A stretch of 62,842 nt of DNA, counting the filler, from Theionarchaea archaeon (lineage in GTDB: Archaea; Methanobacteriota_B; Thermococci; Methanofastidiosales; SZ-28-30), in assembly GCA_018992565.1 (NCBI GenBank). It is 5 parts of 5 records of this genome, joined end to end, with 100 filler letters (N's around TTAATTAATTAA, not from the genome) between each part and the next. Parts side by side here need not be neighbours in the genome. Positions count along the whole stretch, not along the records: positions 29,930 to 44,588 come from JACVGW010000069.1; 4 more parts are not named here. The stretch is one strand, 5' to 3'. The position numbers and the translations under genes are program-made. Positions 1,527 through 62,842 of this stretch are shown one piece after another. Position 1 is the first letter of the stretch, and every line of letters begins with the position of its first letter. The notes beneath the pieces are model-generated. The model did no database searches. It was not told the origin of the DNA and was given only the letters and a program-made list of their open reading frames with translations.

Positions 1527-2366
1527 TCATTCAAATGCATTCACATCAAGTTCGCAGTAGGTAAAATTCCCATCTTTTTCTCGTTTGATAATCCCTCTCT
1601 TTTCCATTCTTATCAGTAATTTAGAGAGGCTTGTCTTGGGGATGCCGCATGCTCTAGAAATCTTTATCTGGCGTGATCTCCCCTTCTGGTGCAGATATTC
1701 AACAACTTGGAGCTCTCGTTCATTCAGAATAGAGAGAACTGCCTTATTCAGGGGAGCTGTTTTACGTCTCCTTCTTCCAAGACGTTTCCTGGTCGCAAAG
1801 AGTACAATTCCTGCTGCTACCACCACACCTAGAACTGCACCCCACGCCCAGGTTATAGTATTCGTATTGCTCAGAGACACTTCATAGTACACATACACAT
1901 CATCGGGCAATTCGTCCCAGAGAAGAGTGATCTTCCTGTCTTCTTCAGATATTTGAGGAAAGGGCGAATCCGTTATCATATACGAGATTACAGCGCCCTC
2001 TGGCATGAGTACTTCCACTTTTTCTTCCGTATGATGTAAGTATATCCACCATTCCACCCCCTCCTTATGGATTATGTCCCAGCTATAATATTCAGGGACG
2101 ACGTAAGCAGACTCCCCTTTCTGGAGAGATATATGCAAGGTAATCTGAGTTTCAGTTCCCAGAGCAGTGAATTCGCCCTGTACTGCCCTATCAGAATAGA
2201 CGTCCATATGTGTTATAGGAAAGGGTATCACATAAGAATACGTATCCATGTCCTCGTCTGCTGTGATCACCAGCTCATGGGTAATTACAGCATATCCAGT
2301 TCCAGATACATCCACCGTATACCCTGTGGTCTGGACCGCAAGGAGAAGAACCAGGAGGGTCCACAT
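1527..2366 (-). CDS. Membrane-anchored protein with C-terminal winged HTH (COG2512-like)
   Basis: Signal peptide, beta-rich ectodomain, TM helix (WAWGAVLGVVVAAGIVLF), then HTH 'LNERELQVVEYL...QIKISRACGIPKTSLSKLLIRMEKRGII'. Confidence 0.75.
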   Translation of the reverse strand: MWTLLVLLLAVQTTGYTVDVSGTGYAVITHELVITADEDMDTYSYVIPFPITHMDVYSDRAVQGEFTALGTETQITLHISLQKGESAYVVPEYYSWDIIHKEGVEWWIYLHHTEEKVEVLMPEGAVISYMITDSPFPQISEEDRKITLLWDELPDDVYVYYEVSLSNTNTITWAWGAVLGVVVAAGIVLFATRKRLGRRRRKTAPLNKAVLSILNERELQVVEYLHQKGRSRQIKISRACGIPKTSLSKLLIRMEKRGIIKREKDGNFTYCELDVNAFE

Positions 2367-3150: not shown

Positions 3151-5094
3151 ATGAAAAAAGCTTTGTGGTACCCTTCTGAAGAACGCAAAAGAAATGCGAA
3201 TATGACACAGTATATGAATTCCCTGAAAGAACTCTATGGACTGACCTTCCGGGATTACCATGAACTGTACCAGTGGTCTGTTGAAAATAGGGGAGGTTTC
3301 TGGTCCTCACTGTGGCATTTTCTTGATGTCATCGCTTCACAACCATACAACACGGTACTTGAGAATCCTGATGACATGATGACGTCCACCTGGTTTACGG
3401 GTGCCCGATTGAATTATGCTGAGAATCTTCTGAGACACACTGATGAGAAGACTGCCCTGATCTTCAAGGGTGAATCCCAGGAGCTGGTGCACCTCACGTA
3501 TAGAGAGCTCTTCAGAAAGGTGGCCTCAGTGGCTGCCTCTTTGAAAGAGTGCGGGGTTGCTGCAGGAGACAGAATAGTGGGGTTTATGCCCAATATGATG
3601 GAAACAGTGGTTGCCATGCTGGCCACTGCCAGTGTAGGAGGGATATGGTCGTCTTGTTCCCCAGACTTCGGAATCAAAGGAGTTCTGGATCGATTTGGAC
3701 AGATAGAACCCAAGATACTGTTTACAGCGGACGGGTACAGTTACAAGGGGAAGAGAATTGATTCTCTTGAGAGAATCTCGGGCATCCTGGAGAAGATCCC
3801 TTCCATTGAGAAAGTAGTGGTTGTGCCGTACACAGAAGAACCTCATCTTACTCTCGCCAAGGCAGTCCACTATGAGGATTTTCAGACTGCTGCGTCACGT
3901 ATTCGCTTTGAACAAGTTGCCTTTGATCATCCTCTCTACATACTGTATACGTCAGGAACAACAGGTGCTCCCAAGTGCATGGTTCACGGAGGGGGGGGAA
4001 CGTTGCTACAGCATTTGAAAGAACTTGTACTACACACCAATTTGAAGAGAGATGACACAATTTTCTACTTCACTACCTGCGGATGGATGATGTGGAACTG
4101 GCTGGTGAGCTCTCTGGCAGTAGGGAGTACCCTGGTTTTATATGACGGAAATCCCTTTTACCCTGATGAGGGGACACTATTCCAGCTGGCAGAAGATACC
4201 TCTATGAGCGTATTCGGGACCAGCGCGAAGTACATTGCTGAAGTAGAGAAAGCGGGATTGAATCCCCAGAAAGAGTATGATCTGAATGCCCTGCAGACCA
4301 TCCTGTCCACGGGTTCTCCTTTGTCTGTGGAGAGTTTTGAGTACGTGTACCGGAAGATAAAGGAGGATATACAATTATCCTCGATATCTGGCGGATCAGA
4401 TATTATTTCCTGCTTTGCTCTGGGATGCCCTCTCCTTCCCGTGTATCCAGGTGAACTGCAGTGCAGAGGATTGGGGATGAAGGTAGAGGTCTTTGATGAG
4501 AGCCAGAGAAGTGTGGTCAACGAGAAAGGGGACCTAGTTTGCACCGCATCATTTCCTTCTCAACCTGTCTCTTTCTGGAATGATCCTCATGGGGAGAGGT
4601 ATAGAAATGCATATTTTGATGTTGTAGATAATGTGTGGGTGCATGGTGATTTTGCAGAAATCACTGGGGACGGCGGAGTCATCATTTACGGGAGATCAGA
4701 TGCTACTCTGAACCCTGGCGGCGTGCGGATTGGGACAGCTGAAATCTACAGAGAAGTGGATGCGTTTCCAGAGGTTGTAGACAGCATTGTAGTGGGCCAG
4801 CCCTGGCAGAATGATGTCCGCGTCATACTATTTGTGAAGTTGCGGGAAGGTATAACCCTGACTGATGCTCTCAAGAGCAAAATGAGAAAAACAATCAGGG
4901 AGAACTGCTCTCCACGTCATGTTCCCAGCAAGATTGTCGGAGTAGAAGACATACCATATACCATTAGCGGGAAAAAGGTGGAAGTTGCTGTGAGAAAGGT
5001 CATTGAGGGACGTCCTGTGTACAACAGAGATGCTCTCAGTAACCCTGAAGCTCTTGATCTGTACAAGAACATACCTGAGCTTTCAACAGAATGA
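3151..5094 (+). CDS. Acetoacetyl-CoA synthetase (acetoacetate-CoA ligase)
   Basis: [38 protein letters not shown] and [20 protein letters not shown] signatures; ATG at 3151 preferred. Confidence 0.92.
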
Positions 5095-24904: not shown

Positions 24905-26032
24905 CTAGAGAAGTCCTCTCCCGTAGTTGGGAAATACTGCCTCAACTCTCCCTTTTCGGACACCATAGTAGATGTCGTGAAGCTTAGCAGTGGTGTCAGA
25001 ATGAGGAGGTATTAACTCCACAGTGTCTCCTACACGGATATCTGACGTGGGCTTTTCAACCTTCACCATGGACAGCTCTTCGCGTTGTTTGACCCTCTTT
25101 ATCCCTTCCAGTCCTTTGATTTTGAAGCCCACTACATTCAGATAACTGTCAGTGTGTTCATCAGAACATGCATTCATACCCGCATCAAAGCATATTTCGT
25201 CTGGCTGGGGCCTGCTAATACAGCTGGTCAAAACAGTCAACGCATAGTCAAATACATCAAGTCCTTCACTCTCATGAGAACACCAGTCACTGAATACATA
25301 GCTTCCAGCCTGAACCTCGACATTCTCGAGTGCCCTGTACTCGGGAGTGATGTCCCAGGTGCAGGTAAATCCCCCGCTGATCATCTCAAGAGCAATGTCC
25401 TCTTTTTTTAGCTCTGCCTTCAGCATGGCTACCTTGTCCAGTGTCTTGAAATGTGCCATCTTTCTCTCTTCCCAATTGACAATATCGGCCAGAGAACCCT
25501 GGTGCCACCACACACCTTTGAATGCAACCCCTTTCACCCTGGTGATTTCTCTGATCAGAGAAGCAGCATCCCCTATATTGACCCCGCAGGTGCCTGTGCT
25601 CATGTAGAGTTCCACGCCCACATTGATCACGGTATCCATGTTACGTGCGATCTCCCCCAGCTTTGTCACATTCTCAATGTTGTCTACACCTACAGTGATG
25701 TCCGCTTGCTTTGAGAGGGCTGCCACCCGGTTCATCTTGTTGCATCCCGCGACTTCATTGGTGATGAGGATATCTGAGAACCCACACCGCACATAATACT
25801 CTGCAAGACCAAGAGAAGTCATAGAAACCCCTTTAGCTCCAGATTCTACCTGTTTCTTTCCTATTATAGGAAGTCTGTGTCCTTTTTGATGAGGACGCAA
25901 GGCTGCTCCTTCTTTTTTACGATAATAGTCAGCCATTGTCTTAATGTTCTTTTCTACAAGGTCCAGATCCATCAGGAGACATGGAGTGTCCAGGTCGTCT
26001 TTATTCATCCCAATAACTGAACAATCTGACAT
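24905..26032 (-). CDS. Fold-type III PLP enzyme (D-threonine aldolase/D-serine dehydratase-like)
   Basis: LDTPCLLMDLD, LRPHQKGH (PLP Lys), DILITNEV, EVQAGSYVFSD, IPPHSD. Confidence 0.82.
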   Translation of the reverse strand: MSDCSVIGMNKDDLDTPCLLMDLDLVEKNIKTMADYYRKKEGAALRPHQKGHRLPIIGKKQVESGAKGVSMTSLGLAEYYVRCGFSDILITNEVAGCNKMNRVAALSKQADITVGVDNIENVTKLGEIARNMDTVINVGVELYMSTGTCGVNIGDAASLIREITRVKGVAFKGVWWHQGSLADIVNWEERKMAHFKTLDKVAMLKAELKKEDIALEMISGGFTCTWDITPEYRALENVEVQAGSYVFSDWCSHESEGLDVFDYALTVLTSCISRPQPDEICFDAGMNACSDEHTDSYLNVVGFKIKGLEGIKRVKQREELSMVKVEKPTSDIRVGDTVELIPPHSDTTAKLHDIYYGVRKGRVEAVFPNYGRGLL

Positions 26033-29829: not shown

Positions 29830-29929
29830 NNNNNNNNNNNNNNNNNNNNNNNNNNNNNNNNNNNNNNNNNNNNTTAATTAATTAANNNNNNNNNNNNNNN
29901 NNNNNNNNNNNNNNNNNNNNNNNNNNNNN
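29830..29929. other. Artificial contig linker
   Basis: N-TTAATTAATTAA-N. Confidence 0.97.
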
Positions 29930-30993
29930 GTCATGGCACACACCAATACTACCAGTATGCAGCAGGTGCCAGCTGTCACTGCAGTGTAATCGACAGCAGA
30001 TATGAGCTTTAACATCTGTTGAGCAACCATCAGGGCAGCAACAGATGCTACTCCTGCTGCCAGCAGTCCACATGACAGAAGCTGCACCAGCATTGCATTG
30101 TTCACTTCAGTAAGCCCCTGGATAACAGCCACTGCCCCACTCCGCGCTTTTCCTATAGTGTACATTCCGATGAGGGCATATACTGCATTTGCTGTATTGA
30201 CCCCTGAAACAGCAACTAGAAATGTGCGAGGAGAAGATTTCATGGAAATAACAGCAGTTGCATGAGCTGGCCCGATTCCCGGAAATAGTGACACAAGCAT
30301 ACCTGCCCCTGCTCCCTTAACCACATTCAGCATGATTTGCAGTCGGCTGAGATGAATTCTGGTGTCAAAAGACTGAAGAGGGAGTCTTGTTGAACACGTT
30401 GCACTCATCAACAAGGTGCTTATTCCAAATAGTCCACAGAACATAGGAAATAGAACAAGATCATTGCCGATCCATGGAGAATTCAGAGCGATATATCCAT
30501 ACAATCCTGATATAATGAACACTGCACCTGATGCTGAAATTCTGAGGAGACTCTTTTCAGAGCCGATCATTATAGCCACGAATCCCAGCAGAATGTACGC
30601 CAGATATGGGCTGATAGTTGCATGGAGGGGAGGAATCAGTACGATCATCAGAGGAGCCAGTGAACATGACAACATCAAAGACCCCAGGCTCCCCACCACA
30701 GTGAGTTTAATTGCCTCATATCCCCTCCCCTGGAGGAGCAGACGATGCGCCGGCAGGATGCTCAATGCAGTATCCTCGTCAGGAACCCCGAATAACGTGG
30801 AAGGTATGAAGTCAAGAAACGTATGTGTCACAGCCAGTGAGAAAATAAGGACAGCACTCATGGATCCAGAAACGGGGAGCAGTACTATAAATGGCAGCAG
30901 TGTATTTACGTGAAGTCCCGGTGTCAGCCCAGTAATGACTCCCAGACAGATACCCGCTCCACACATACTGACCAGCGTCGTGACGTCATCCAT
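29930..30993 (-). CDS. TctA-like (DUF112) membrane permease, 3'-truncated
   Basis: GVITGLTPGLHVNT, THTFLDFIPSTLFGVPDEDTALSILPAH..G.G..A; many TM helices. Confidence 0.85.
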
Positions 30994-35601: not shown

Positions 35602-36717
35602 ATGACATATGAGGAACAATTCGGAGAACACACTATGGATTTAACAGAATCAGAAAAGAGACTCCTCACGCTCATTGGGGAGAATCCCTCACATACCAGA
35701 TGGGAATTGCTGCAAGAGCTCAATTACAAGCGGCCCACTACGCTGAGCAGCAAAATGAGCGAACTGAAAAAAGCAGGATACATCAGGGGGCCATACTATC
35801 ACATCAATCTGAATGCTGTATGTGAGACTCCAGTATACAGTATACTGGCTGAAATTCGATTCAGCCCCAGCCACTACGATGTGGTTTTCAAGAGCATTCT
35901 CTGTATTGACTGTTGGGAGTGGATTTTCCCCACGATACAGGGAGAAACACTCTTTGCATTTTTCAGGTCCTGCGACTGCTCCCATCTCCACCGGTTGTTG
36001 AATGTGTTGAGAAATGAGGGGGTTATTGAGTACCGCTCATATACCTCGCAGAACAGGTGGTTCGTACAGAACCCAGACTTCTCAGGGAGTGTTTTTCCGC
36101 AGACGTCTGATCTCTTTCGTTCCGTTGATATTGAGCTTTGCTACCCTGACAAAACCCATAATACTGCCTGGCAGTTTATTGACCTGAAGGTGATGCAGTA
36201 TCTCCAGGTAAGGACCACCAGTATTGCAGAAATACAAAAACTGGAAAAAAGTCTGCATGGAAGGTTCTGGAGGCGCCATCAGATCAAGCACAGCATTAAG
36301 AAGATTACTGAAGCAGGAATTGCTGAAAGAAAACATTATAATATTTCTCCCTTTCCTCGAGGCGAAGACTATGCGTTTCTGTTGCTCATTGAAGGTGACA
36401 GCCTGGACGTTCTGCAGTTCATTTCAAGTTTTGGCAGAGGCTGCAGGCTGTACAAGGCCTTCACAATGAGCGGTGGGACAGGGTTCTTGTGGTGCTGGTG
36501 CAGTCCACAGGTAGGTCCCACCCTGATGAAGAGGCTTGATAATCTCCGTCCACGAATTGAAGCCCGCTGCCTTCCACTAAAATCGAGAGGACACGGTGAC
36601 ACACTCAAGAAGTCATTCAACGAAGAATATTTCGACCTTGAAAAGCAGAAGTGGACTTTTCACTTCAAGAAATGCAAAGAAGAAATAGAAAAGGTAATGG
36701 AGAGAAAGAACGAATAG
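35602..36717 (+). CDS. Tandem Lrp/AsnC-like winged-helix regulator
   Basis: N-terminal HTH 'LTESEKRLL..TTLSSKMSELKKAGYI' and a second HTH-like unit 'IDLKVMQYL..IKKITEAGIA'; start may be ATG 35635. Confidence 0.6.
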   Translation: MTYEEQFGEHTMDLTESEKRLLTLIGENPSHTRWELLQELNYKRPTTLSSKMSELKKAGYIRGPYYHINLNAVCETPVYSILAEIRFSPSHYDVVFKSILCIDCWEWIFPTIQGETLFAFFRSCDCSHLHRLLNVLRNEGVIEYRSYTSQNRWFVQNPDFSGSVFPQTSDLFRSVDIELCYPDKTHNTAWQFIDLKVMQYLQVRTTSIAEIQKLEKSLHGRFWRRHQIKHSIKKITEAGIAERKHYNISPFPRGEDYAFLLLIEGDSLDVLQFISSFGRGCRLYKAFTMSGGTGFLWCWCSPQVGPTLMKRLDNLRPRIEARCLPLKSRGHGDTLKKSFNEEYFDLEKQKWTFHFKKCKEEIEKVMERKNE

Positions 36718-36724
36718 GTGCTTT

Positions 36725-36823
36725 TCAGCAGGGAGTATCTTTATCATCACCTTCAACTCCCCCACAGGGAGTTATTCTCCAGATGATATCTGGAAGATTC
36801 AGTTTCTGCATTGTATTGTACAT
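36725..36823 (-). CDS. Small peptide, 32 aa: MYNTMQKLNLPDIIWRITPCGGVEGDDKDTPC
   Basis: RBS AGGTGA 6 nt before ATG, TTAAGTA/TATA-like boxes upstream, wholly intergenic; below ORF-track cutoff. Confidence 0.65.
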   Translation of the reverse strand: MYNTMQKLNLPDIIWRITPCGGVEGDDKDTPC

Positions 36824-37019
36824 ATTACATCACCTGGTGAGTGGATTGAGAAATTACTTAAGAATCATCCCGCTTTTATTATATATCCTAAGGATTCTCA
36901 AAATTTAAGATTGCCATACCTCAGGAATGAGGCCTTCTCAGTTCTCAAGCTTTCTTGGATGCAGAGCGGACGAGCTCAAGATCACTCGTGCTGTACAGTG
37001 GAAGAGACCTCCCTCACGG

Positions 37020-38381
37020 TCATTCCTCTGGAGGGGTGATGAGATCCATTTCAAATCTGACAAGGGCATTGTACGCCCCTTTTATGTCGTCTGAGGTCCC
37101 TGTCTGCAAGGCTTCTCTATATTTTTCCTCCAGGAATTCCCTCTTCTGTTTTATGTCAATTTCCCTGAGATTTCGCTTCACTTTCCTGATTTCCGCAAGC
37201 TCATCAAGTTGCTCGTAAAGACTGAGGCTTTTCTCCCAGAGTCCCCTGGCTCTCGTCAGCTCTTCCTTTCGAGCATGACACAGTCCTTTGTTATAAAGTG
37301 AACCCGCAATCCTGAATGTGTTCTTTCCTGCCAATGTCAGTGCTCTCTCGAATAATGCCAGAGCATCATCAATGTCATCATTCATGTAAGAACAGGAACC
37401 CAGATTATTCAGGACGTCAGACAACAGGGGAGTGTCCTGTATGTCTTCAGCAGTTCTTTCACATCTCGTGTAGTACTGCTCTGCAACCATGAAGCTGGAT
37501 CTCTTGTATGAGACGTTTCCCAATTCCTTCAAGGCGTATGCCTTTCCTCTGCTGTCTCCAGTTTCTCCACAGATTCCTTCCATGCGGAGGAATGCAGCTT
37601 CCGCCCTGGCCAGGTCACCCTTCAATTCGTAGACACACCCCAACGTATAGAGTGCCCAGGTAATCTGGGAATTATCCAACCCATCAGGCAGGACAGCATC
37701 CAAGGCATGAAACAGCGCTGTATTATCCTCCTCTCGTTCCCGAGTTACCTTCTCCAATACTCTCTTGAGAGCAGTATCCCATTCTTCAGAAGTGCGCAGC
37801 TTTGAAGCGGCATCCGCTCTTGTCATGTAAAAGATTTCTTCTCCCTTTTTGGAGAGTCTGTATTGACTCTGATCCACATGGCTCTTTTTCTCATATTCTA
37901 TGTACCCTTTCATTCTCAGGTGCTTGAGGTTCCGGTAAATGCTTGCCCTGGATACACCTTTTATACTACCAAGATAGGTGTTGAAATGCTCTTCGACGTC
38001 TCCCGTTGTGACAGACTGCCTTTTCCCCACCACATGAATAATGTGGACCATGATCTCCCAGGGTTTTACGTCTAATTCTTCCATTGCCTTGACAATCCTC
38101 TTTCCGATGTCTTTCTTGAGGGGTTCTGAGGCTTGCTGGGATCTCCTCACATCTCCAAAAAGATTCAGCCCTCGAGAGGTGATAGTGTAGAAGGGAAGAA
38201 TGTCCTTCCTTTCAACTTTCAGGAGATATTCCTGTGCAAGAAGCTTGAGCATGATAGACTGCGTATTACTGCCTCCGATTCTCTTGGCCTGTTCTTCCGT
38301 GATTTTTCTCCCGTGACAACGGGCGAAGTCTAGGATCTCGACTGTGAGTTCCACCTCCTTTGTGCCATTGAGCAAAACCAT
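37020..38381 (-). CDS. Tandem winged-HTH plus TPR regulator
   Basis: wHTH 'VSRASIYRNLKHLRMKGYI..YRLSKKG'; TPRs 'ALYTLGCVYELKGDLARAE', 'VLNNLGSCSY', 'SLYNKGLCHA'. Confidence 0.8.
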   Translation of the reverse strand: MVLLNGTKEVELTVEILDFARCHGRKITEEQAKRIGGSNTQSIMLKLLAQEYLLKVERKDILPFYTITSRGLNLFGDVRRSQQASEPLKKDIGKRIVKAMEELDVKPWEIMVHIIHVVGKRQSVTTGDVEEHFNTYLGSIKGVSRASIYRNLKHLRMKGYIEYEKKSHVDQSQYRLSKKGEEIFYMTRADAASKLRTSEEWDTALKRVLEKVTREREEDNTALFHALDAVLPDGLDNSQITWALYTLGCVYELKGDLARAEAAFLRMEGICGETGDSRGKAYALKELGNVSYKRSSFMVAEQYYTRCERTAEDIQDTPLLSDVLNNLGSCSYMNDDIDDALALFERALTLAGKNTFRIAGSLYNKGLCHARKEELTRARGLWEKSLSLYEQLDELAEIRKVKRNLREIDIKQKREFLEEKYREALQTGTSDDIKGAYNALVRFEMDLITPPEE

Positions 38382-38595: not shown

Positions 38596-39012
38596 TTACT
38601 CGAAATCTCTTTTATCCATGAAGAAGTCAACAATATCCATAGAGAAATCCAGCGGAAATTCATTCTGTGACAAGAGCTTCAACATGCCTTCTTGGAGATT
38701 CTCAGTGCTTTCCGAATTCACTGTGTGGGCTATTCCTGTTAGGAGGATGTAAAAAGCTCGAACCACCTTGGGTGCCATAACACTCCTGGGTCCTGACCGT
38801 GGTGAAGACCCTCCTGCATCTCTAACTGAGGGTCCTTCCAGGTCCCACCACACATTCTTAGGTTCAAGGTTGCCATTTTTCCGTTCCTTGAGAACCTCTG
38901 CAAAGGTTTCCCATATCAAATGGAGATATGGGACTTCTTCCGGGTATTCTCTTTCTATGAATTCCTCTGCATACTGCCTCACTTTGTCCACAATCTCCTC
39001 TTCTATGTTCAT
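38596..39012 (-). CDS. Hypothetical helical protein, 138 aa
   Basis: Clean ORF with GAGGA RBS; divergent from the CHAT gene. Confidence 0.65.
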   Translation of the reverse strand: MNIEEEIVDKVRQYAEEFIEREYPEEVPYLHLIWETFAEVLKERKNGNLEPKNVWWDLEGPSVRDAGGSSPRSGPRSVMAPKVVRAFYILLTGIAHTVNSESTENLQEGMLKLLSQNEFPLDFSMDIVDFFMDKRDFE

Positions 39013-39213: not shown

Positions 39214-42078
39214 ATGATTACCCATCCGAAAATTCTCTATTTGTTCTCTGGACCTCTGGTGACCTTGGATGGCATCCCTCTTGACGTTCTAGACTTGAAG
39301 ACAGAGCGCGATGTCATTGTGAGGGAGATTTCTGCCTGCCAGAGAACATGCTCACTTCGTATTGGATATGCAACTATAGAGGAACTTGCCAGAGGCATTG
39401 AGGATGGATTCAATATTCTGCATATCAGTACTCATGGCAAGGAGGAATTTCTCTTGTTTGAGGATGGGAAAGGTGGAAGTCAGCCCGTGACAGGCGAATA
39501 CCTCAGGAGAATGATAGGCACGGGAGGTGCGGTTGAATTGGCTGTTATCAGCGCCTGCCATAGTGAAAAAGTTGGCTCACTGCTGGCTGATGCAGGTGTT
39601 CCACATGTTGTGGCAGTCAAGCGTGATTTTCCAGTAGTAGATCATGCAGCTATCGTCTTTACAGCCCATTTCCTCCGCAATCTTTTCCGCGGAAATACCG
39701 TAAAAATTGCCTTTGAGATGGCTTCTTTACTAGTAGAAGGGAACCCGGATCTGGTGAAGATGAGGCACTATCTCAAGGTTGCAGCCTATAGAAAGAGAGA
39801 GAAATTCATACCCGAAGAAGAGAAGTTTGTTCTCCTCCCTCGAGATGGTTCACATGAGAGTCCCCTCCTCTCTCAAGATGTGGCGCGCGGTACTGTGACA
39901 ATTGAAGAGCCGCTGCCGTCACCCTCGAATCTCCCCACGAAACCACAATTCTTTACAGGTCGATCAGGAGAGATGCATGCTGTTATCAGTGAGCTCTTGC
40001 AGAGCAGGCTGATCACCTTGACAGGAGTGGGCGGCATCGGAAAAACAACACTGGCCATCGAGGTAGCACGATGGACCTGTTGGCGGAATATCTTTCCCCA
40101 GGGAGTATATTACGTGGACCTCAGACAGACTGACACTGCAGATGGGGTTCTTGATCTACTCTGTGCAGCTCTTGAGGTGAGAGTGTCTCGGCTTCAGAAT
40201 GTCATTACACACCTTGAAAACCGTCGCTGCTTGCTGGTCCTGGATAATGCAGAGGATATCCTCTGGTACGATGAAGACGGGATGCAATATATTGCTAGCA
40301 CCATTTTGAGGACCACTTCCCATACGAAGTTGTTGATAACAAGCCAGAGGCCAGTGGGAGGAAATCTGTACGAGCCTGAACGTGTGTGCAGAATTGGTCC
40401 ACTGGAACGCAGGTATGCTACGCAGCTCTTTTGTGCCACAACGAAGAGGAGAGTATTACAGAATGAATATGGATCACCTCTCTTCGATGACCTCGTTGAC
40501 CAGTTAGGAGGACACCCCTTATCACTTGTACTAACAGCTCGTCAGCTTGCCCCCGGGGTGACTCTTGAAGATATACATGAGAGAATTGAGGTACACAAAG
40601 CCAAAGCAATCAAGACAAAGCATATCACGGGGAGGACTCTGGATCATGGGGAAAGCCTGGTAACAGCCCTGGCCTCAACATATCATGTCCTGTCAGATAG
40701 AGCACAGATACTTTTTCAGGTACTCTCCCTCCTTCCAGCAGGGGTCAAGAAGGATGTATTTGAAGACATCTGGGGCAGTCCAGTCTGGGAATATGTGCAA
40801 GAATTAAATGATGCCTCTCTGGTAGAGGTGAGAACCGGGAGAGTGACACTGTTGCCACCGGTGAGGTTGTTCGCATTGACTGTTCTCACTGATGAGGTCA
40901 GGAGTTGTTATCGTCCCAGAATTGTGAAAGTCATGGGGACATTCACCAGAATACTGTACAAGGGTCACACTACGGGGAGCTCGGGAGACTATCGGGCTCT
41001 TTTTACTGTAGAAGAGCCAAACCTTCGAGCTGTCGTTGACTTCCTCAGTGAATCATCTCAAAGAAGAGAGAACACGTCATCTCCTGGGCTCTTTGGGGCT
41101 GAACTCATTTACCTGTACATTTTCCACAATCGATGGAAAGAAGCACAGACTGTTGGTTCCAGGATTCTATCCCATCTAAAAAGATGTGAGGATCCAGAGG
41201 GTGAGGCGCATGTGCTCATAGCACTGGGTGTCCTTGCTTTTCGAACAGGGAATTTAGAAGAAGCCAAGACGCAGTATGAAAAAGCTCTCCAAAACTATCA
41301 GGATACCCATGCACGAATGGGTGTGGCAAATGCCTTCTGGACCTTGGGTGATCTTCTTTTTAGAACAGGAGATTTCCAGGGAGCTCAAGAGAGATTTGAA
41401 AAAGCCTTATGTATCTACCGTGAGATTGAAGTGGACCTCGGCGAAGCAAATGCCCTTCTGCGCCTTGGACTCCTTGCTTTTCTCACAGGACATCCTGGAG
41501 AAGCTCAGGGACAGGTTGGAAAAGCTCTGGAGATCTATCAAGGTATTCACGTGGAGATTGGTGAAGCAAATGCTCTCCGGATACTGGGAGATTTTGCCAT
41601 GTGGACAGGTGATAGTGTTACAGCTCATACCCAGTATCGGAAAGCTCTGAAAATCTACACACGTAACAGCGTGAAAGATGGTGAAGCGCGCACCCTCGTC
41701 CATCTGGCCCGATGGGCTGCTCTGGCAGGCGAGAGGGAGGGTGTAGAGAGATATCTCGATGATGCGTTCGCAATATATGAGGAAAGAGAAGATCTTGACG
41801 GCCAGGCTCATGCACACATGGTGAAAGCGTTGCTCTTTCTTGCTGTCCACAACTTGACCCGAGCAAGGCGTCAGCTTGAATATTGTTCATCTATCCAGGA
41901 AAAAACGTGCCAGCATTCTGAAGCAGCACAGTGGCTCATTACATACGCAGGGTATTTTATGCCACACAGCTGCAAAGAAGAAGCATCACTTTGTCTGGAA
42001 TATGCAGCGAGATTTGCATCAACAGCACGGAATTTCCATCTGCTCGACAGAACTATGGAACTGCAAGTAGTACTATGA
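39214..42078 (+). CDS. CHAT (caspase-like) protease - STAND/NB-ARC NTPase - TPR protein
   Basis: CHAT dyad LHISTHG and ISACHS; FTGR; Walker A GVGGIGKT; Walker B LLVLDNAE; GHPLSL; several TPRs; RBS GGAGG. Confidence 0.88.
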   Translation: MITHPKILYLFSGPLVTLDGIPLDVLDLKTERDVIVREISACQRTCSLRIGYATIEELARGIEDGFNILHISTHGKEEFLLFEDGKGGSQPVTGEYLRRMIGTGGAVELAVISACHSEKVGSLLADAGVPHVVAVKRDFPVVDHAAIVFTAHFLRNLFRGNTVKIAFEMASLLVEGNPDLVKMRHYLKVAAYRKREKFIPEEEKFVLLPRDGSHESPLLSQDVARGTVTIEEPLPSPSNLPTKPQFFTGRSGEMHAVISELLQSRLITLTGVGGIGKTTLAIEVARWTCWRNIFPQGVYYVDLRQTDTADGVLDLLCAALEVRVSRLQNVITHLENRRCLLVLDNAEDILWYDEDGMQYIASTILRTTSHTKLLITSQRPVGGNLYEPERVCRIGPLERRYATQLFCATTKRRVLQNEYGSPLFDDLVDQLGGHPLSLVLTARQLAPGVTLEDIHERIEVHKAKAIKTKHITGRTLDHGESLVTALASTYHVLSDRAQILFQVLSLLPAGVKKDVFEDIWGSPVWEYVQELNDASLVEVRTGRVTLLPPVRLFALTVLTDEVRSCYRPRIVKVMGTFTRILYKGHTTGSSGDYRALFTVEEPNLRAVVDFLSESSQRRENTSSPGLFGAELIYLYIFHNRWKEAQTVGSRILSHLKRCEDPEGEAHVLIALGVLAFRTGNLEEAKTQYEKALQNYQDTHARMGVANAFWTLGDLLFRTGDFQGAQERFEKALCIYREIEVDLGEANALLRLGLLAFLTGHPGEAQGQVGKALEIYQGIHVEIGEANALRILGDFAMWTGDSVTAHTQYRKALKIYTRNSVKDGEARTLVHLARWAALAGEREGVERYLDDAFAIYEEREDLDGQAHAHMVKALLFLAVHNLTRARRQLEYCSSIQEKTCQHSEAAQWLITYAGYFMPHSCKEEASLCLEYAARFASTARNFHLLDRTMELQVVL

Positions 42079-42108: not shown

Positions 42109-42984
42109 TCATGACAGCTCAGGAAGCTTCTCTATGAATTCTCTGGCATCAGTAACAAGCTGCTGTGCACTATCACTCCTGTCGTTCTTGCCGAGTAACT
42201 CCGCAGCCTCTTCAAGATACCCTAGCGTCAACTCAGCTTGGGCAGGAGTATTGTCTTCCGCTTGCTTCCAGAGGGTGTTGGCATGCGTCCAGAGTCCATT
42301 TGCTCTCTTTCTCAGGGCATTTGCCCTATCCCGAAATTGTCTCTTGAATTCCTCTGAAATGCTTTTTTCGCTCTTCATGGTTCCTGCACTTTCTTGCAGG
42401 CATTTGGTCCTATGAGCCAGGAGGACATCATACACATGACCTATCATCCCATCTGGATGGGTTTCGCCCTCAAGGGTCCATTCATTCTTGGTTATTGCTG
42501 TTATCTCCAATCCGCATGCCTCTTTGACCAAATCAGCTGAATTCTGAATCATGGGCCTGGAAGTGGACGAGTTGTAACCCGAAAGGCTGGCCAGTCTTTC
42601 TGCAGGTGCTGTGCAACTTTGATACCCGTTACACAAATATTCCCAGTGAGTTCCCAGCATGTTAAAGTGAGTGGGAATTATATCGGGCTGCTGCCACCCC
42701 TCACATCGATAGGAGTCAATGAGGAACCTTGAAAGAGATGCTGTCATTTCCACAATAGCTTCTACAAGCTCTTTTTCTTTCTCCACCTGTACAGAAATGA
42801 GAATCACCATTTCATCTCTCATTTCATCGGTGCCGCTCACGTTGAAAAGCAGTGCGTCACCGGTCTTCAACCCCGCTGTTACCGCATCTGCCAAAGTCTT
42901 GTCAGCAGTCCTCCTGATCTGCTGTTCCATGCTGATGATTCTCTTCTTCTCGAATTCAATACTGCTTTCTCCTTGTCTTTCCAT
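42109..42984 (-). CDS. Hypothetical helical protein, 291 aa
   Basis: Long ORF with protein-like composition and no recognised motif. Confidence 0.6.
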   Translation of the reverse strand: MERQGESSIEFEKKRIISMEQQIRRTADKTLADAVTAGLKTGDALLFNVSGTDEMRDEMVILISVQVEKEKELVEAIVEMTASLSRFLIDSYRCEGWQQPDIIPTHFNMLGTHWEYLCNGYQSCTAPAERLASLSGYNSSTSRPMIQNSADLVKEACGLEITAITKNEWTLEGETHPDGMIGHVYDVLLAHRTKCLQESAGTMKSEKSISEEFKRQFRDRANALRKRANGLWTHANTLWKQAEDNTPAQAELTLGYLEEAAELLGKNDRSDSAQQLVTDAREFIEKLPELS

Positions 42985-43170: not shown

Positions 43171-44217
43171 TCAGTCAGCCACGAGGATTTCCTCTGTTCT
43201 TTGCCAGCACCGGGGGTCTTCTCCAAGGAAATCACCCATTGCAGAAGCAGCACCTCTACAGCCTCCGCAGGCAAACTTGTATTTACATGTGCCACATTTC
43301 CCTTCAAGTGCTGATCTGGAATGGCGAAAGTTCTCAAGAAGTTCATTTTCAAACCAGATGTTCTCCAGGTTTTCTTGTGTGGCATCAGCTACAAAGATGG
43401 GGAAATAGGGACAGAGCTGGACAATCCCCTGGGGGTTGATGTAGAGCAGTGTAAAGGCAATTGAGCATCCAGTTACTGCTATCCCCTGCATAAGATCTGA
43501 ATCAGTTTCTATTTCTCTATGTCTCACTTCATTCATAAACATTTCAGGAAAGGGATCACTGAATCCGACTCTCATATTCAATTCTTTACCTGTATCCCAT
43601 ATTCTCTCGCACAGCCTGCGATATTGATCTGCATCCACCAGCTTATGTGAAGCTCGTCCCACAGGGACAAGGTATCGGAAATTGAATATTTTAATGCCAA
43701 TGCTGTCTATAAATCGCATGAGAGCTTCTGGTTCATCTTCTCCTTGATGGAAATATGTCATCCGCACAGCCACAGTGGCATCCTTTTCCACGAGGAGGTT
43801 TAATGCCTGGACAGTCTTTTCAAAGGATCCCCTGCCGCGGACAGAGTCATGTATTTGCGGAGTTGCACCTTCCATGCTGACATTGAACCCTCGAACTGTT
43901 TCCAATAGCCAATCAACGTTTTCAGGAGTTATCAAGGTTGCATTGGTGAGCAATTCAACGTGATTTCCAGGGTGGTTTTCTTTGATGTAGCAGAAAATAT
44001 CCCTGAGGTCTGGTCTCATGAGAGGTTCTCCGCCGGCTATTGCCAGAGCAGCATGTGGTGAAATAGCATGTATCTGATCCAGTAATGAAATAACCTGCTG
44101 GAAGGTGAGATCTGCTGTCGTTTTGTCCAATACGCTTGCACGACAATGCTTACATGCCAGGTTGCACTGGCTTGTAATATCCATCTGTACAATTCTGGGT
44201 GGGTGTTGCCATTTCAT
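43171..44217 (-). CDS. Radical SAM/SPASM enzyme, putative peptide maturase
   Basis: CNLACKHC, GGEPL, LLTNA, HDSVRG.GSF; SPASM 'GCSIA..INPQG.VQLCP..KCGTC..ACGGCR..EDPRC'; ATG 44217 behind GAGGT. Confidence 0.9.
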   Translation of the reverse strand: MKWQHPPRIVQMDITSQCNLACKHCRASVLDKTTADLTFQQVISLLDQIHAISPHAALAIAGGEPLMRPDLRDIFCYIKENHPGNHVELLTNATLITPENVDWLLETVRGFNVSMEGATPQIHDSVRGRGSFEKTVQALNLLVEKDATVAVRMTYFHQGEDEPEALMRFIDSIGIKIFNFRYLVPVGRASHKLVDADQYRRLCERIWDTGKELNMRVGFSDPFPEMFMNEVRHREIETDSDLMQGIAVTGCSIAFTLLYINPQGIVQLCPYFPIFVADATQENLENIWFENELLENFRHSRSALEGKCGTCKYKFACGGCRGAASAMGDFLGEDPRCWQRTEEILVAD

Positions 44218-44274: not shown

Positions 44275-44523
44275 TTACTTCGGTAGGATGCAGATATCGC
44301 ATCCGCCGCACGGTCCCTGCAAACTAGGATAGAATGGCCGCAGAGGATGTAGTGACTTCAGTTTCTGAAGTCTGTCCTCAACATCCATCTTCTTTGGTTC
44401 TCCTATGACAAGGTCACATCCTCCGCATGGGCCTTGAGCTGCATATACGGGGATTTTGTTCTGTTTCGCATGTTCTAAGGCGTCTATCAACTCTGATACA
44501 GAATAGTGTTTCTCTGTTTCCAC
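44275..44523 (-). CDS. Putative RiPP precursor, 82 aa, with two leader-core units containing QGPCGGCD
   Basis: GTG start behind GGAAGTGA; immediately upstream of the rSAM/SPASM gene on the same strand; duplicated Cys motif. Confidence 0.8.
   Translation of the reverse strand: METEKHYSVSELIDALEHAKQNKIPVYAAQGPCGGCDLVIGEPKKMDVEDRLQKLKSLHPLRPFYPSLQGPCGGCDICILPK
44296..44436 (-). repeat. Protein-level duplicate QGPCGGCD (44413-44436 and 44296-44319)
   Basis: CAA GGC CCA TGC GGA GGA TGT GAC versus CAG GGA CCG TGC GGC GGA TGC GAT. Confidence 0.9.
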
Positions 44524-44588: not shown

Positions 44589-44688
44589 NNNNNNNNNNNN
44601 NNNNNNNNNNNNNNNNNNNNNNNNNNNNNNNNTTAATTAATTAANNNNNNNNNNNNNNNNNNNNNNNNNNNNNNNNNNNNNNNNNNNN
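44589..44688. other. Artificial contig linker
   Basis: N-TTAATTAATTAA-N. Confidence 0.97.
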
Positions 44689-44756
44689 CGTCTTTACCAC
44701 TATCTTTAAATAAGACAAGGTAGTTACCTACATAACTCAAGAAAAGGTGTATTGAA

Positions 44757-49853: not shown

Positions 49854-50756
49854 TCATAATCGCCTGAGCAAGACCACCCTGCTCTCGCTCTGAGAATCGC
49901 AGACCTCATAGGATGAATAATCCTCAACAGCATGTGCAAACGCTTCAACTTGCGAAAAAGAGGGCATATTCTCAATAGTCATTCTGTGTCTGGAGTACCC
50001 TACAAACATGTATGCCTTGGCTTCCACAAAATCAGGAGCCGCTTTTTCGATGAGCTGGGCATACATCTCGGGATGAACCATGTTGATCCCGTTCACCAGA
50101 GTGAGCCGGATCACCCTCTGAGTCTCAAGCTGGGAGAATAGTGATACAGTCTCCATAATTTTGGACCACCCCTCTGTCTGTGGATGGCATAAGGCTCTGT
50201 AAATGGCTTCCGTGGGAGCAGCCAGCGTCAGATACAAGTTCCAGGGCAGCTCCAGGGATTCTAGAACCCCCGGGTTGGTGCCATTAGATACTAAGAAGGT
50301 TGTCATTCCCCGGGCTTTGTAGTGATGTATGAGTTCAGACAATTCTGGATACAATGTGGGTTCCCCCGACAGAGAAATAGCCACATTGTTGGGATACTGA
50401 GCTTCTTTCAGTTTCTTGGCAGAAACCCTTTCTGGCAGCCCAAAGTACCCTGCCAGCAGGGCTTTCTGAGCTTCCAAACTCTCTTCAACAATGAGATCTG
50501 GCGGATCATATTCAGGAAGAGCAGGTTCAGTGAATTGAGTTGGCCTCCAGCAGAATAAGCATTTCTGCGTGCACGCAGTGACCGCAGGAGTCATCTGGAG
50601 GCAGCGATGAGAATTGATTCCATAGAACTTTTGTTTGTAACAGAATCGATCTTCCAGGAGGCTTTTTCGAAGCCAATGGCATAGCTTCACTGCAGAATGA
50701 TTACCCACAATTCGGTAGTGCTGTCTTTTCAGGAGGTTCTTCAGTTCATGATCCAT
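49854..50756 (-). CDS. taw1: 4-demethylwyosine synthase (radical SAM)
   Basis: HSAVKLCHW, CYKQKFYGINSHRCLQMTP, CTQKCLFCWR, ISLSGEPTLY, KAYMFVGYSR. Confidence 0.95.
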   Translation of the reverse strand: MDHELKNLLKRQHYRIVGNHSAVKLCHWLRKSLLEDRFCYKQKFYGINSHRCLQMTPAVTACTQKCLFCWRPTQFTEPALPEYDPPDLIVEESLEAQKALLAGYFGLPERVSAKKLKEAQYPNNVAISLSGEPTLYPELSELIHHYKARGMTTFLVSNGTNPGVLESLELPWNLYLTLAAPTEAIYRALCHPQTEGWSKIMETVSLFSQLETQRVIRLTLVNGINMVHPEMYAQLIEKAAPDFVEAKAYMFVGYSRHRMTIENMPSFSQVEAFAHAVEDYSSYEVCDSQSESRVVLLRRL

Positions 50757-50997: not shown

Positions 50998-51087
50998 TCA
51001 TCCTGGGTATGGTACATCCCCGGGGACAGGACCTCCAAGGAGTATGATCCCGACCATGCCGAGAATGAATGTGTGTGTTGCACACAT
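50998..51087 (-). CDS. Small peptide, 29 aa: MCATHTFILGMVGIILLGGPVPGDVPYPG
   Basis: RBS GAGGTGA, TAAATATAA box upstream, U tract about 40 nt downstream (50947-50958); below ORF-track cutoff. Confidence 0.6.
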   Translation of the reverse strand: MCATHTFILGMVGIILLGGPVPGDVPYPG

Positions 51088-51508
51088 GCACATCACCTCG
51101 GCATTATATATCTGTATTGATTATATTTAGAAAATTATCAATCCAAAAAGAGAGGACGATGATGCAAAGTGTGAGAATCAGAGTCTCGGAATTTGAGAAA
51201 TCATGAAGAGAGCCTATGGTCAAGTGCCATAGAGTGACCTTCGAAGAATGGAAGAGGGACACCTGTGGTGCACTGAAGATTGAAATTCAACCTGAGAGAA
51301 AGATTTGCCTATGACAGAATCTATTCGCATGCACGGGTGTTATCATGGGATGCACAGAACAGTTGCACTTCATGTCTCTCTTTCTCACCTTCATGTGAGA
51401 TTTCTCTCATACATGATCTACAAAACCCTGCACTCTTTTCTCACCTGCCCAGACTTCTGCATCCCTGTACATCAATACCTTTATATACTCTTTATGCCAT
51501 TCTCACTC

Positions 51509-52087
51509 ATGAAGAGATCAGAAACCCGTGTCCTGAAAGACCCTGAAAAGATCAAGATAGTCGTTGACGAGACCAGAAGGAATATTCTGTCTCTTCTCAG
51601 ATTCAGTGAATTGACTGTTTCCCAGATAGCTGACGTGTTGCAAAAAGACCAGTCCACTATTTACCGGCACATGAGCAAACTGGAAGAAGCAGGATTCGTG
51701 GAAGTGAGGGGAGAGAAGAAAACCCACCACATTCCAGAAAAAGTCTATGCGCGGACTGCCCACTTCTTCATTTTGGTTCCTGAAACTGAGGAAACGTCCA
51801 GGCTCCTGGAAACATACTCTGCCAAGAGGATGGAAAAGCTGTTCCAGCTGATGAAGAAAATGGGGGCAGACATTCACATTGATGACAACCTCATTACAGA
51901 GGGTAGACGCTTTGTTGCTGCCCTTCGCAGTGAATTGTTTGAAGAATACGAAGAAATTGACGAACCTTTGGACATTATCATGCTCAAGAAGCTGGAACTG
52001 TTCCTCATCCTGCTTCGAATGGAAGAAAATGAGAATTTCAGGGAAAAGGTGTTCCAGTTCATCAGGAAAATGAAAGGATCTAACTAG
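51509..52087 (+). CDS. ArsR-family winged-HTH regulator
   Basis: DETRRNILSLL..LTVSQIA..STIYRHMSKLEEAGFV..EKVYAR; TTTATATA 22 nt before ATG 51509. Confidence 0.85.
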   Translation: MKRSETRVLKDPEKIKIVVDETRRNILSLLRFSELTVSQIADVLQKDQSTIYRHMSKLEEAGFVEVRGEKKTHHIPEKVYARTAHFFILVPETEETSRLLETYSAKRMEKLFQLMKKMGADIHIDDNLITEGRRFVAALRSELFEEYEEIDEPLDIIMLKKLELFLILLRMEENENFREKVFQFIRKMKGSN

Positions 52088-62104: not shown

Positions 62105-62842
62105 ATGGGATCCAATGAGAGAGGAACAGGGGAAGTCGGAAATAGAGAGTCTTTTCCTGAGACGATGGTATTCGTTCTGGAGACTGTATCCAAGTATAAG
62201 AGACTTCCTTCTAAAATGCTCCTTCTTGTTGCAAAGAATCTTGAACCTTCGACTCTCCGTAGGGCTGCGAGCGTCCTTGAAAGAGGAGGATATCTGAGGA
62301 AGAGAAGGGAATCAGACGATACATACTACTCTCTGGCGTCGCAAGGCGATATTCTCATGGAAAAGGAGCGCGAAAAGATAAAGCTCAAACTGAAAGATCT
62401 CCTGGCGAAGATGAAGCCTAGAGCGTGGGAAAGGCGATTGTACATACTTCAAATTGTCCAGGAAAGAAGAGAAGCTACCTTTACTGAAATATCCGAAGCT
62501 GTAAAAGATCAGTTTCCCATCGGTTCCAGCAGAGCAAACATGTACAGGGATATCGAGCAACTGAGAATGAAAGAATACCTCGTGATCTCAAAGTTCAGTA
62601 CAGTGTACGAGAATCTATATGAAGTTGGAGATATGGGAATCAAGGTTCTGGAAAAGAGAGGTCAAGCATTTGAAAGGGAACCTTCAGACCTCCCGCTTGT
62701 AACCACATCTTCCACATCAAGAGAACAGTGGGCATCTATTGGCGATATTGCTGTCCCCTGGATTATTGTAGAAGGCACAGGGGAATTCATGTACACGAAA
62801 GAGCACATAGTGTCCCGATATCTTGACCTTCCTCTTGACCTT
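62105..62842 (+). CDS. 3'-truncated tandem winged-HTH protein, paralog of 37020-38381
   Basis: Open from ATG 62105 (GGAG RBS) to window end; 'KPRAWE..SRANMYRDIEQLRMKEYL..YEV' aligns with 'KPWE..SRASIYRNLKHLRMKGYI..YRL'; not in ORF track. Confidence 0.75.
   Translation, partial: MGSNERGTGEVGNRESFPETMVFVLETVSKYKRLPSKMLLLVAKNLEPSTLRRAASVLERGGYLRKRRESDDTYYSLASQGDILMEKEREKIKLKLKDLLAKMKPRAWERRLYILQIVQERREATFTEISEAVKDQFPIGSSRANMYRDIEQLRMKEYLVISKFSTVYENLYEVGDMGIKVLEKRGQAFEREPSDLPLVTTSSTSREQWASIGDIAVPWIIVEGTGEFMYTKEHIVSRYLDLPLDL

Follow-up and report, generated by a model that had tools for sequence, protein, structure and literature searches.

Does the 300-nt gap between two convergent genes of a Theionarchaea archaeon hold a gene of its own, and to which of its neighbors would that gene belong? 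We examined a stretch of 62,842 nucleotides from the assembly GCA_018992565.1 (here called the window; all positions count along it) and, within it, the segment from 35602 to 38381. An initial annotation had noted there an uncalled 32-codon open reading frame (ORF) downstream of a gene for a protein with a winged helix-turn-helix (wHTH) and TPR repeats, convergent with a tandem Lrp-like gene. From this layout it had inferred an archaeal peptide-signaling module, built either like bacterial RRNPP quorum sensing or around a peptide modified by a radical-SAM enzyme. On the comparative sequence evidence set out below, the ORF is a genuine, translated mini-gene under strong purifying selection in its tail. 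Judged by gene neighborhoods, its constant partner is the convergent gene, which encodes a fused double-Lrp protein, and not the wHTH-TPR gene, and judged by tail types and protein clades, peptide and double-Lrp protein diversified together.

Evidence for a translated mini-gene

The signals described in the initial annotation are in place. Translation of the ORF from 36725 to 36823 gives the 32 residues quoted there, with an AGGTGA and the TATA-like A/T box ATATATAATAAAAG upstream (Table 1), and the box would imply a 5' leader of ~25 to 30 nt. On the same strand, 196 nt lie between the stop of the wHTH-TPR gene and the start of the ORF, and 7 nt (36718 to 36724) separate its TGA from the TAG of the convergent gene. 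Searches of Pfam, NCBIfam, and Rfam gave no match to the mini-ORF. The exact peptide is missing from ~15 billion predicted proteins, and thus no gene caller had called the ORF of the window. Aligned reads from four DNA runs of four studies were identical and variant-free from 36450 to 37150.

G001, a metagenome-assembled Theionarchaea genome, served as whole-genome proxy for the window; its TPR protein shares 80% identity with that of the window (locus L001; other related loci are numbered likewise). At L001 the mini-ORF, its Shine-Dalgarno (SD) sequence, and the TATA block were conserved, and the 110 nt directly after the TPR stop could not be aligned. Between the window and L001, the last 22 codons of the mini-ORF differed by four synonymous and zero nonsynonymous changes, and the first 10 codons carried three amino acid changes. 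Across the six orthologs of 32 codons, with the near-identical L031/L033 comparison excluded, the proportion of nonsynonymous changes (pN) in the last 14 codons was 0.03 to 0.12, against a proportion of synonymous changes (pS) of 0.41 to 0.74, for a pN/pS of ~0.1; in the first 18 codons pN was 0.18 to 0.34 and pS 0.18 to 0.66. Because this pattern is specific to the reading frame, we conclude that the frame is translated and that constraint falls on its C-terminal tail. The window peptide is accordingly divided into a variable N terminus of 18 residues and a conserved Pro/Gly/Asp unit formed by the C-terminal 14 residues, PCGGVEGDDKDTPC.

The ORF is kept in the Theionarchaea relative, in paralogous cassettes (by cassette we mean a mini-gene and its convergent double-Lrp gene), and on metagenome contigs. 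When the DNA following each double-Lrp family gene was scanned, orthologs and paralogs alike had homologous mini-ORFs in the convergent position, at most of the loci. The ORF is short and lies between convergent genes, a place where terminators are to be expected, which could suggest a chance ORF or a noncoding element whose conservation reflects an RNA or terminator region. The frame-specific substitutions have already refuted this explanation, to which we assign virtually no probability. Moreover, the amino acid motif is retained across unalignable DNA at loci whose partner proteins are 25 to 86% identical, Rfam has no match at the mini-ORF, and relatives of the peptide have been called as genes in NCBI, JGI, and ENA records.

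The SD sequence was kept in place, as (T)AGGTGA or GAGGTGA, in relatives of at least 56% identity and also in L022 and L023, and the TATA block ATAT(T/A)TAATAAAA lay at the same distance in L001 and in L033 to L038. Peptide promoters of the clade at ~40% identity were A/T rich and lacked an SD sequence. In one sequencing run (X6), a second, low-depth contig differed between 36910 and 37020, where the 109-nt spacer after the TPR stop was swapped for 120 other letters. Since this replacement matches the unalignable spacer of L001, we regard the post-TPR spacer as a hypervariable stretch between conserved blocks.

Pairing of the mini-gene with the double-Lrp gene

A maximum-likelihood tree was built from the 37 distinct double-Lrp family proteins with a complete 3' end. 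The window protein fell within a clade of 24 rows (support, 100/100), and the other clade held 13. In the clade of 24, a convergent mini-ORF ended 0 to 120 nt from the stop of the double-Lrp gene in 21 rows; 19 of these mini-ORFs were positive with the peptide profile described below, and 2 were forms of 63 to 64 aa. Even in the distant clade, 2 rows had a related convergent mini-ORF, and the copy at L006 overlapped the stop codon by 4 nt. As a control, we counted convergent, SD-preceded ORFs of 25 to 70 aa ending within 40 nt of the stop of each of the 42 window ORFs of at least 200 aa: two had one, and one of the two was the double-Lrp gene itself. In G001 (3 Mb), three of the four places matched by the peptide profile lay beside double-Lrp family genes.

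The pairing extends to the types of peptide, as the tail types tracked the protein clades (VEGDD..TPC; IPGDD..TP[CG]; IPGDDPGTP[VI]; GGPVPGDVPYPG with PIPGGPPAPL; and the long forms). At L038, a second peptide gene was accompanied by a 3' fragment of a double-Lrp gene. The two tandem peptide genes and this fragment (L038 positions 3614 to 4639 and 946 to 1998) lie between the intact Lrp gene and the TPR gene, with a DDE transposase gene nearby, an arrangement that looks like a cassette duplication in progress.

The mini-peptide family

Nineteen mini-peptide rows were aligned (alignment A3), and the profile of this alignment was used in the family searches. The consensus was MYxxxxLGLxDxxxxxxPCGGxPGDDPxTPx, with G21, G25, and P31 invariant. 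Its constrained C-terminal unit reads P-x-G-G-[IV]-[PE]-G-D-D-x-x-T-P-x, and its N-terminal half varies and is moderately hydrophobic. Members were 26 to 37 residues long. Two relatives of 47 and 50 aa carried the core unit twice, which indicates that the core is a modular unit. Among 132 genomes of the phylum of G001, the profile matched 4 places in G001, 3 in a second genome (G033), and one further place, weakly and with an internal stop. Against 1.84 billion representative proteins it found 7 called proteins, all of 30 to 50 aa, some of whose cluster mates appear in NCBI as "hypothetical protein [Theionarchaea archaeon]." By these profile matches, the mini-peptides form an undescribed Pro/Gly/Asp-rich family of Theionarchaea.

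A second family member lies in the window itself, at 50998 to 51093 (Table 1). It has an ortholog in G001 with conserved synteny (L054), and its closest G001 paralog (L022) is convergent to a double-Lrp gene. The window copy sits between a Taw1-like wyosine radical-SAM gene (49854 to 50756) and a divergent ArsR-type wHTH gene (51305 to 52087). Another G001 locus, L003, holds a paralogous cassette: its mini-ORF has 31 codons and a GAGGTGA, the convergent gene encodes a 358-aa paralog, and a TPR gene is present as well. In three loci (L041 to L043), a second frame at 4056 to 4190 on the minus strand ended in the same GVPGDDPGTPI tail as the first peptide gene, scored 24 to 27 bits, and preceded that gene by ~280 nt.

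The forms of 63 to 64 aa (L019 and L020) have a signal-peptide-like hydrophobic N terminus (hydropathy, 3.2 to 3.5) and a DGDDPP-type acidic, Pro-rich tail. They were not matched by the A3 profile and have only their position and tail type in common with the short peptides. Some of the short members are also hydrophobic at the N terminus (hydropathy of 1.95 for the peptide at 50998 to 51093 and 2.18 for that of L003).

The double-Lrp protein

Homologs place the start of the convergent gene at its second ATG, for a protein of 360 aa instead of the 371 aa counted from the ATG at 35602. An AlphaFold2 (AF2) model based on a 27-row alignment had a predicted local distance difference test score (pLDDT) of 89.5 and contained two wHTH plus beta-alpha-beta-beta-alpha-beta (RAM-like) modules. 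With this model, Foldseek listed the siroheme decarboxylase NirDL first (4ch7; E value, 8.6e-9; TM score by query, 0.50), followed by many Lrp/AsnC regulators matching each half (TM score by target, 0.6 to 0.72). VIA-align likewise ranked NirDL highest (4czc_A; Z, 14.3; 287 of 305 residues; root mean square deviation, 5.3), with the next row at Z 8.6 and Lrp/AsnC regulators at Z 7 to 8 per half, among them S. tokodaii ST1022 (2e7w), Pyrococcus furiosus LrpA (1i1g), and Escherichia coli AsnC (2cg4), which have the same wHTH and RAM folds. A profile search of the PDB with the 360-aa family gave weak matches to Lrp/AsnC regulators only, the best to ST1022 at an E value of 0.006; at E values up to 10 it found neither NirDL nor AhbA/B.

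Word-based searches, run with the 360-aa protein or its alignment as query, returned only proteins that were named as Theionarchaea or Methanofastidiosia or were unnamed, and some of the homologs carried Lrp/AsnC as their source name. Nine of the 132 genomes were matched by the 371-aa protein (G001 had 8 such matches and G033 had 7), and a metagenome scan for the family added 17 more loci. Two window ORFs of similar length (29878 to 30993 and 24905 to 26032) were considered as paralogs of the gene and were rejected by comparison. Structural look-alikes reach further: full-length matches in the ESM Atlas (TM score, 0.77 to 0.84) came from archaeal clusters mostly labeled Methanobacteriota, Bathyarchaeota, or Nitrososphaerota, and spanned Thermoproteota and Thorarchaeota as well. 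In several of these clusters, more than 90% of members were of the HTH_AsnC type. The second HTH of the double-Lrp family has a conserved basic helix (consensus RFWRRxQIKYSI).

On the predicted structure, we read the 360-aa protein as a fused pseudo-dimeric protein of the Lrp/AsnC type with a likely regulatory role. The protein differs from known Lrp/AsnC regulators in that its two modules are fused, with a conserved linker and a C-terminal helix, in that it reaches no Pfam cut-off, and in that its family has expanded to ~8 copies per genome. The known effectors of Lrp/AsnC proteins, moreover, are amino acids and not ribosomal peptides.

The first rank of NirDL could suggest a different function, in which the double-Lrp-fold protein would act on the peptide as an enzyme or as a leader-binding scaffold, and the cassette would make a modified peptide in the manner of ribosomally synthesized and posttranslationally modified peptides (RiPPs). 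The gap between the NirDL score and the next row in VIA-align, together with the Foldseek E value, would fit this, and precursors with several cores, or with a variable leader and a conserved core-like tail, do occur among RiPPs. The rank of NirDL is nevertheless explained by architecture alone, because NirDL (compared here along with AhbA-AhbB; 4ch7, 4czc, and 4czd) is the only fused double Lrp-like chain solved in the PDB. Identity to NirDL is 11 to 12%, the comparison being one of fold and overall sequence, and the sequence profile of the family finds Lrp/AsnC regulators instead. The basic helix of the second HTH also counts against an enzyme, as does the difference between a single-copy pathway enzyme and a family of ~8 paralogs per genome paired with mini-genes. 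In addition, no protease, transporter, or other maturase was conserved in the cassettes. By analogy with known RiPP systems, then, such a role is conceivable, and we consider it improbable.

The wHTH-TPR gene as a recurrent neighbor

The 453-aa protein upstream of the mini-gene has TPR_12, TPR_2, and TPR_1 matches at residues 240 to 400 and a weak PadR-like wHTH at residues 115 to 182. Next to it is a gene for a 138-aa protein with no Pfam or NCBIfam match. Homologs of the 138-aa protein stood beside the TPR gene at L036 (5455 to 5871), L060 (1284 to 1655; 30% identity; E value, 3e-21), and L061 (3306 to 3710). Whichever side of the TPR gene it occupies, the gene for the protein of 123 to 138 aa seems to form a fixed unit with it.

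By tblastn, a TPR gene lay beside the cassette in 9 of the 24 clade rows (the window, L001, L003, L031 to L033, and L036 to L038). L034, L035, and the clade at ~40% identity had none within the available locus DNA. All three full-length TPR paralogs of G001 were beside cassettes. One of these three loci held a TPR protein 50% identical to that of the window with an Lrp-like partner only 26% identical, and a 123-aa homolog of the 138-aa protein was encoded between them. The single TPR gene of G033, with its 135-aa companion, had no peptide or Lrp-like gene in the 6.5 kb examined. Because cassettes occur without a TPR gene and the TPR gene of G033 stands alone, we regard the TPR gene and its 138-aa companion as a recurrent accessory and not as the constant partner.

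These results bear on the RRNPP-like module proposed in the initial annotation, in which a processed peptide would be received in the cytoplasm by the wHTH-TPR protein, with the Lrp-like gene as bystander or output. Several features recall RRNPP, Rgg-SHP, and arbitrium (AimR-AimP) systems. A tiny, separately promoted peptide gene is joined to a gene for a DNA-binding protein, many paralogous pairs occur per genome, and the conserved functional part is at the C terminus of the precursor. Convergent peptide and regulator genes are known at some Rgg/SHP and PrgX/PrgQ loci. The order of genes in the window, with an HTH-TPR gene directly followed by a peptide gene on the same strand, is that of aimR-aimP and rap-phr, and the recurrence in G001, including the locus with an Lrp partner only 26% identical, would also favor a TPR receptor. 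The TPR part of the AF2 model (pLDDT of ~90; 66 overall, with a low-confidence N-terminal half) resembles peptide-binding proteins, since a Foldseek search of the PDB listed LGN, KLC, and designed TPRs at the top and the Rap protein of phage phi3T at rank 39 (E value, 1.7e-5; TM score by query, 0.34).

Against this, 15 of the 24 rows had no TPR gene in the available locus DNA, and the only TPR gene of G033 had no peptide gene nearby. The TPR protein has a winged, PadR-like HTH, whereas RRNPP receptors have one of the XRE type, and the fold matches are those of generic TPRs; for the modeled protein, they neither support nor exclude kinship with RRNPP. The constant partner in the cassettes has an Lrp/AsnC (wHTH and RAM) fold instead of a TPR fold, the short peptides lack a Sec-type signal, and no link to Opp, PptAB, or Eep was shown. 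The Pro/Gly/Asp-rich tail is also far more conserved between paralogs than is usual for pheromones. Finally, the host is an archaeon. To our knowledge, only in Bacillota and their phages has signaling by ribosomal peptides through cytoplasmic receptors been established, and we found no description of an archaeal peptide-receptor pair, or of the pairing of mini-peptides with double-Lrp proteins, in the part of the literature formed by open-access papers and bioRxiv. The proposed layout thus stands as far as the recurrence of the wHTH-TPR gene beside peptide genes is concerned, and is not supported as regards that protein being the obligate partner; an RRNPP-like module appears decidedly unlikely.

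One more stretch of the window resembles the wHTH-TPR gene. From 62105 to 62842 on the plus strand, an ORF that runs off the end contains a PadR-like winged-helix stretch 31% identical to residues 106 to 180 of the wHTH-TPR protein, and it may be another paralog, cut by the window end.

A peptide-regulator module as the preferred reading

We favor a reading in which each peptide gene would be expressed from its own promoter, tail to tail with its own double-Lrp paralog. The peptide, or a tail released from it, would act on the double-Lrp protein, either inside the cell or after export and reuptake, and the double-Lrp regulator would in turn control the peptide promoter. In the lineage of the window, the wHTH-TPR protein and its 138-aa companion could add another level of regulation upstream of the peptide gene. 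Whether the peptide or its C-terminal unit is indeed the cognate effector of the neighboring double-Lrp protein seems to us an evenly balanced question, the steps of binding, processing, export, and DNA binding being those that we infer. Of the archaeal signaling module first suggested for this locus, it is this peptide-regulator core that survives as the best reading, without the TPR protein as obligate receptor and without the peptide as a radical-SAM substrate.

A bolder form of the same reading would have the cassettes serve archaeal peptide communication or self-sensing on a receptor fold unlike those of bacteria, with each double-Lrp protein as the cytoplasmic receptor of its own Pro/Gly/Asp-rich peptide, freed from a mini-precursor with one or sometimes two cores, several orthogonal pairs per genome, and the wHTH-TPR protein and its companion as an added layer. 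We hold this only tentatively and consider it somewhat unlikely. Given the spread of structural look-alikes of the double-Lrp protein over archaeal phyla, the Theionarchaeal family may be one branch of a domain-wide, undescribed signaling principle.

Several observations weigh against the preferred reading. Three of the 24 clade rows lack a mini-ORF (L014, L044, and L046); these are orthologs abutted by an endonuclease-dU gene. Of the 13 distant double-Lrp genes, 11 are without a peptide. Because many rows are near-identical metagenome copies, the number of independent lineages is ~17 and not 24. There are also orphan peptide genes, namely, the one at 50998 to 51093 in the window, L053, and the second copies in L038 and in L041 to L043. 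The conserved tail is nearly identical among many paralogs, as would be expected of a shared functional module more than of signals specific to each paralog. Scans for repeats and palindromes found no operator motif common to the peptide promoter and the Lrp promoter; a 6+4+6 palindrome lay between the TATA box and the SD sequence in 2 of 10 peptide promoters.

Further points concern the proteins themselves. The N terminus of the window peptide is not signal-peptide-like (maximum hydropathy over 11 residues, 0.58). In Pfam, the 360-aa protein matched HTH_24 only, at an E value of 0.018 and 15.1 bits (cut-off, 21.9), and had no AsnC_trans_reg match; in NCBIfam it had no match at the cut-off. 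Since its best whole-chain match, NirDL, is an enzyme, a nonregulatory role of the double-Lrp protein is possible. No Peptidase_C39, the family that processes double-glycine leaders, was found in G001 or G033, an absence that is not proof because both genomes were assembled from metagenomes. At L005, L040, L041, and L045, a gene for a presenilin-type signal-peptide peptidase (PF06550) lies ~240 to 700 nt upstream of the peptide gene and divergent from it, flanked by genes for Sir2 and a zinc-ribbon membrane protein; this holds for the whole clade at ~40% identity. The L045 copy, the only one scanned, matched PF06550 at an E value of 9.5e-21. The single presenilin-type gene of G001 is not near any cassette, and we take the protease beside the clade at ~40% identity to be probably a matter of local synteny.

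A simpler account would keep regulator and target only. The mini-gene would encode a small exported or membrane-associated protein and be the dedicated target of the double-Lrp protein, with no binding or signaling involved. Lrp-type regulators commonly control an adjacent gene, the forms of 63 to 64 aa have strongly hydrophobic N termini, and several of the short members are hydrophobic as well. Selection, however, is strongest on the hydrophilic, acidic tail and not on the hydrophobic part, and the precursors with two cores suggest a unit that is released. The codiversification of peptide types with protein clades is compatible with such a target gene but exceeds what one would need. We rate this account as rather unlikely, and below the peptide as effector of the double-Lrp protein.

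The pairing provides a concrete pair that can be synthesized, consisting of a peptide of 10 to 32 residues, a protein of 360 aa, and a promoter of 100 bp. It also illustrates that standard annotation misses mini-genes of this kind, as the absence of the window peptide from the predicted protein collection demonstrates. If the two prove to be ligand and receptor, ribosomal peptides would join the effectors of Lrp/AsnC-fold proteins, and archaeal cell-cell signaling or self-signaling would become open to experiment.

The radical-SAM enzyme on the same contig

The initial annotation had also considered the peptide as a second substrate of the SPASM radical-SAM enzyme at 43171 to 44217, since its PCGGVE resembles a PCGGCD core on the same contig. 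Two GPCGGCD units do exist 7.5 to 7.7 kb from the mini-ORF, in an 82-aa ORF next to the enzyme gene, and CGGVE in the window peptide is a CX3E motif of the kind used by ranthipeptide maturases. The resemblance is weak, however. The A3 profile did not match the 82-aa ORF at E values up to 10 among 13,350 frames. When the window was translated in all six frames, the four-residue string PCGG turned up at 4 sites, one of them in a noncoding frame; shuffled sequences gave an expectation of 0.7.

The peptide family as a whole does not preserve the motif. Cys20 is present in 10 of the 19 aligned peptides and a C-terminal Cys in 8 of them; in most, CX3E is replaced by CGGIPGDD, with Pro instead of Asp or Glu at position +4 after the Cys. 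The enzyme, which is below every NCBIfam cut-off, is 6.3 kb and five genes away from the mini-ORF, and the 82-aa ORF adjoining it is probably a separate two-core precursor of a modified peptide. No radical-SAM gene was found among the scanned neighbors of the cassettes in related loci. In their short precursors with a conserved C-terminal core, the Cys-Gly-Gly of some members, the multicore relatives, and the presence of a SPASM enzyme elsewhere on the contig, the cassettes do recall radical-SAM/SPASM systems (ranthipeptides/PapB, SCIFF, and mycofactocin MftA-MftC). They differ from these systems in lacking a conserved Cys and in the place of the enzyme, which lies some genes away beside a precursor of its own; other cassettes lack a maturase. 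We consider it very improbable that the mini-peptide is a substrate of this enzyme, and the CX3E interpretation is not supported.

Features of the window and other neighboring genes

The coordinates of the features discussed are collected in Table 1.

Table 1. Features of the window, with positions counted along its full length
Feature	Positions	Strand	Basis or remarks
Double (fused tandem) Lrp/AsnC-like protein, 360 aa	35635..36717	(+)	Homolog starts, AF2, Foldseek, VIA-align, PDB profile
Mini-peptide gene, 32 codons	36725..36823	(-)	ORF, orthologs and paralogs, alignment A3, pN/pS, profile matches
Shine-Dalgarno-like AGGTGA	36830..36835	(-)	6 nt before the ATG (36823-36821)
TATA-like A/T box ATATATAATAAAAG	36873..36886	(-)	~57 nt before the ATG of the mini-gene
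wHTH and TPR protein, 453 aa	37020..38381	(-)	Pfam TPR_12, 3e-13; PadR, 1.9e-4, below cut-off
138-aa protein, no known family	38596..39012	(-)	Adjoins the wHTH-TPR gene in 4/4 loci examined
SPASM radical-SAM enzyme	43171..44217	(-)	Below every NCBIfam cut-off; best TIGR04053, 175 of 395 bits
82-aa ORF, GPCGGCD (CX3D) twice	44275..44523	(-)	Abuts the SPASM gene; 93% conserved in G001
Second peptide-family member	50998..51093	(-)	Tail GGPVPGDVPYPG; 34.5 bits to A3; no double-Lrp gene beside it

The plus strand of the window encodes a 954-aa STAND-type protein with CHAT, NB-ARC, and TPR domains (39214 to 42078), placed between the cassette and the radical-SAM genes. A short run of masked bases (X in translations) lies at ~44630 to 44690, between the 82-aa ORF and a threonyl-tRNA synthetase gene. 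The double-Lrp gene of L036 has a divergent neighbor (1536 to 2309, minus strand) that encodes an ICMT/PEMT-like membrane methyltransferase. As the peptide of this locus has Gly and not Cys at its C terminus, no link to the methyltransferase is apparent. A protein of 258 to 291 aa with no known family is encoded 0.5 to 5 kb from the cassettes in three loci: in the window at 42109 to 42984 (minus strand), in L033 at 298 to 1158, and in L035 at 927 to 1703 (34 to 38% identity; E values, 4e-51 and 1e-34).

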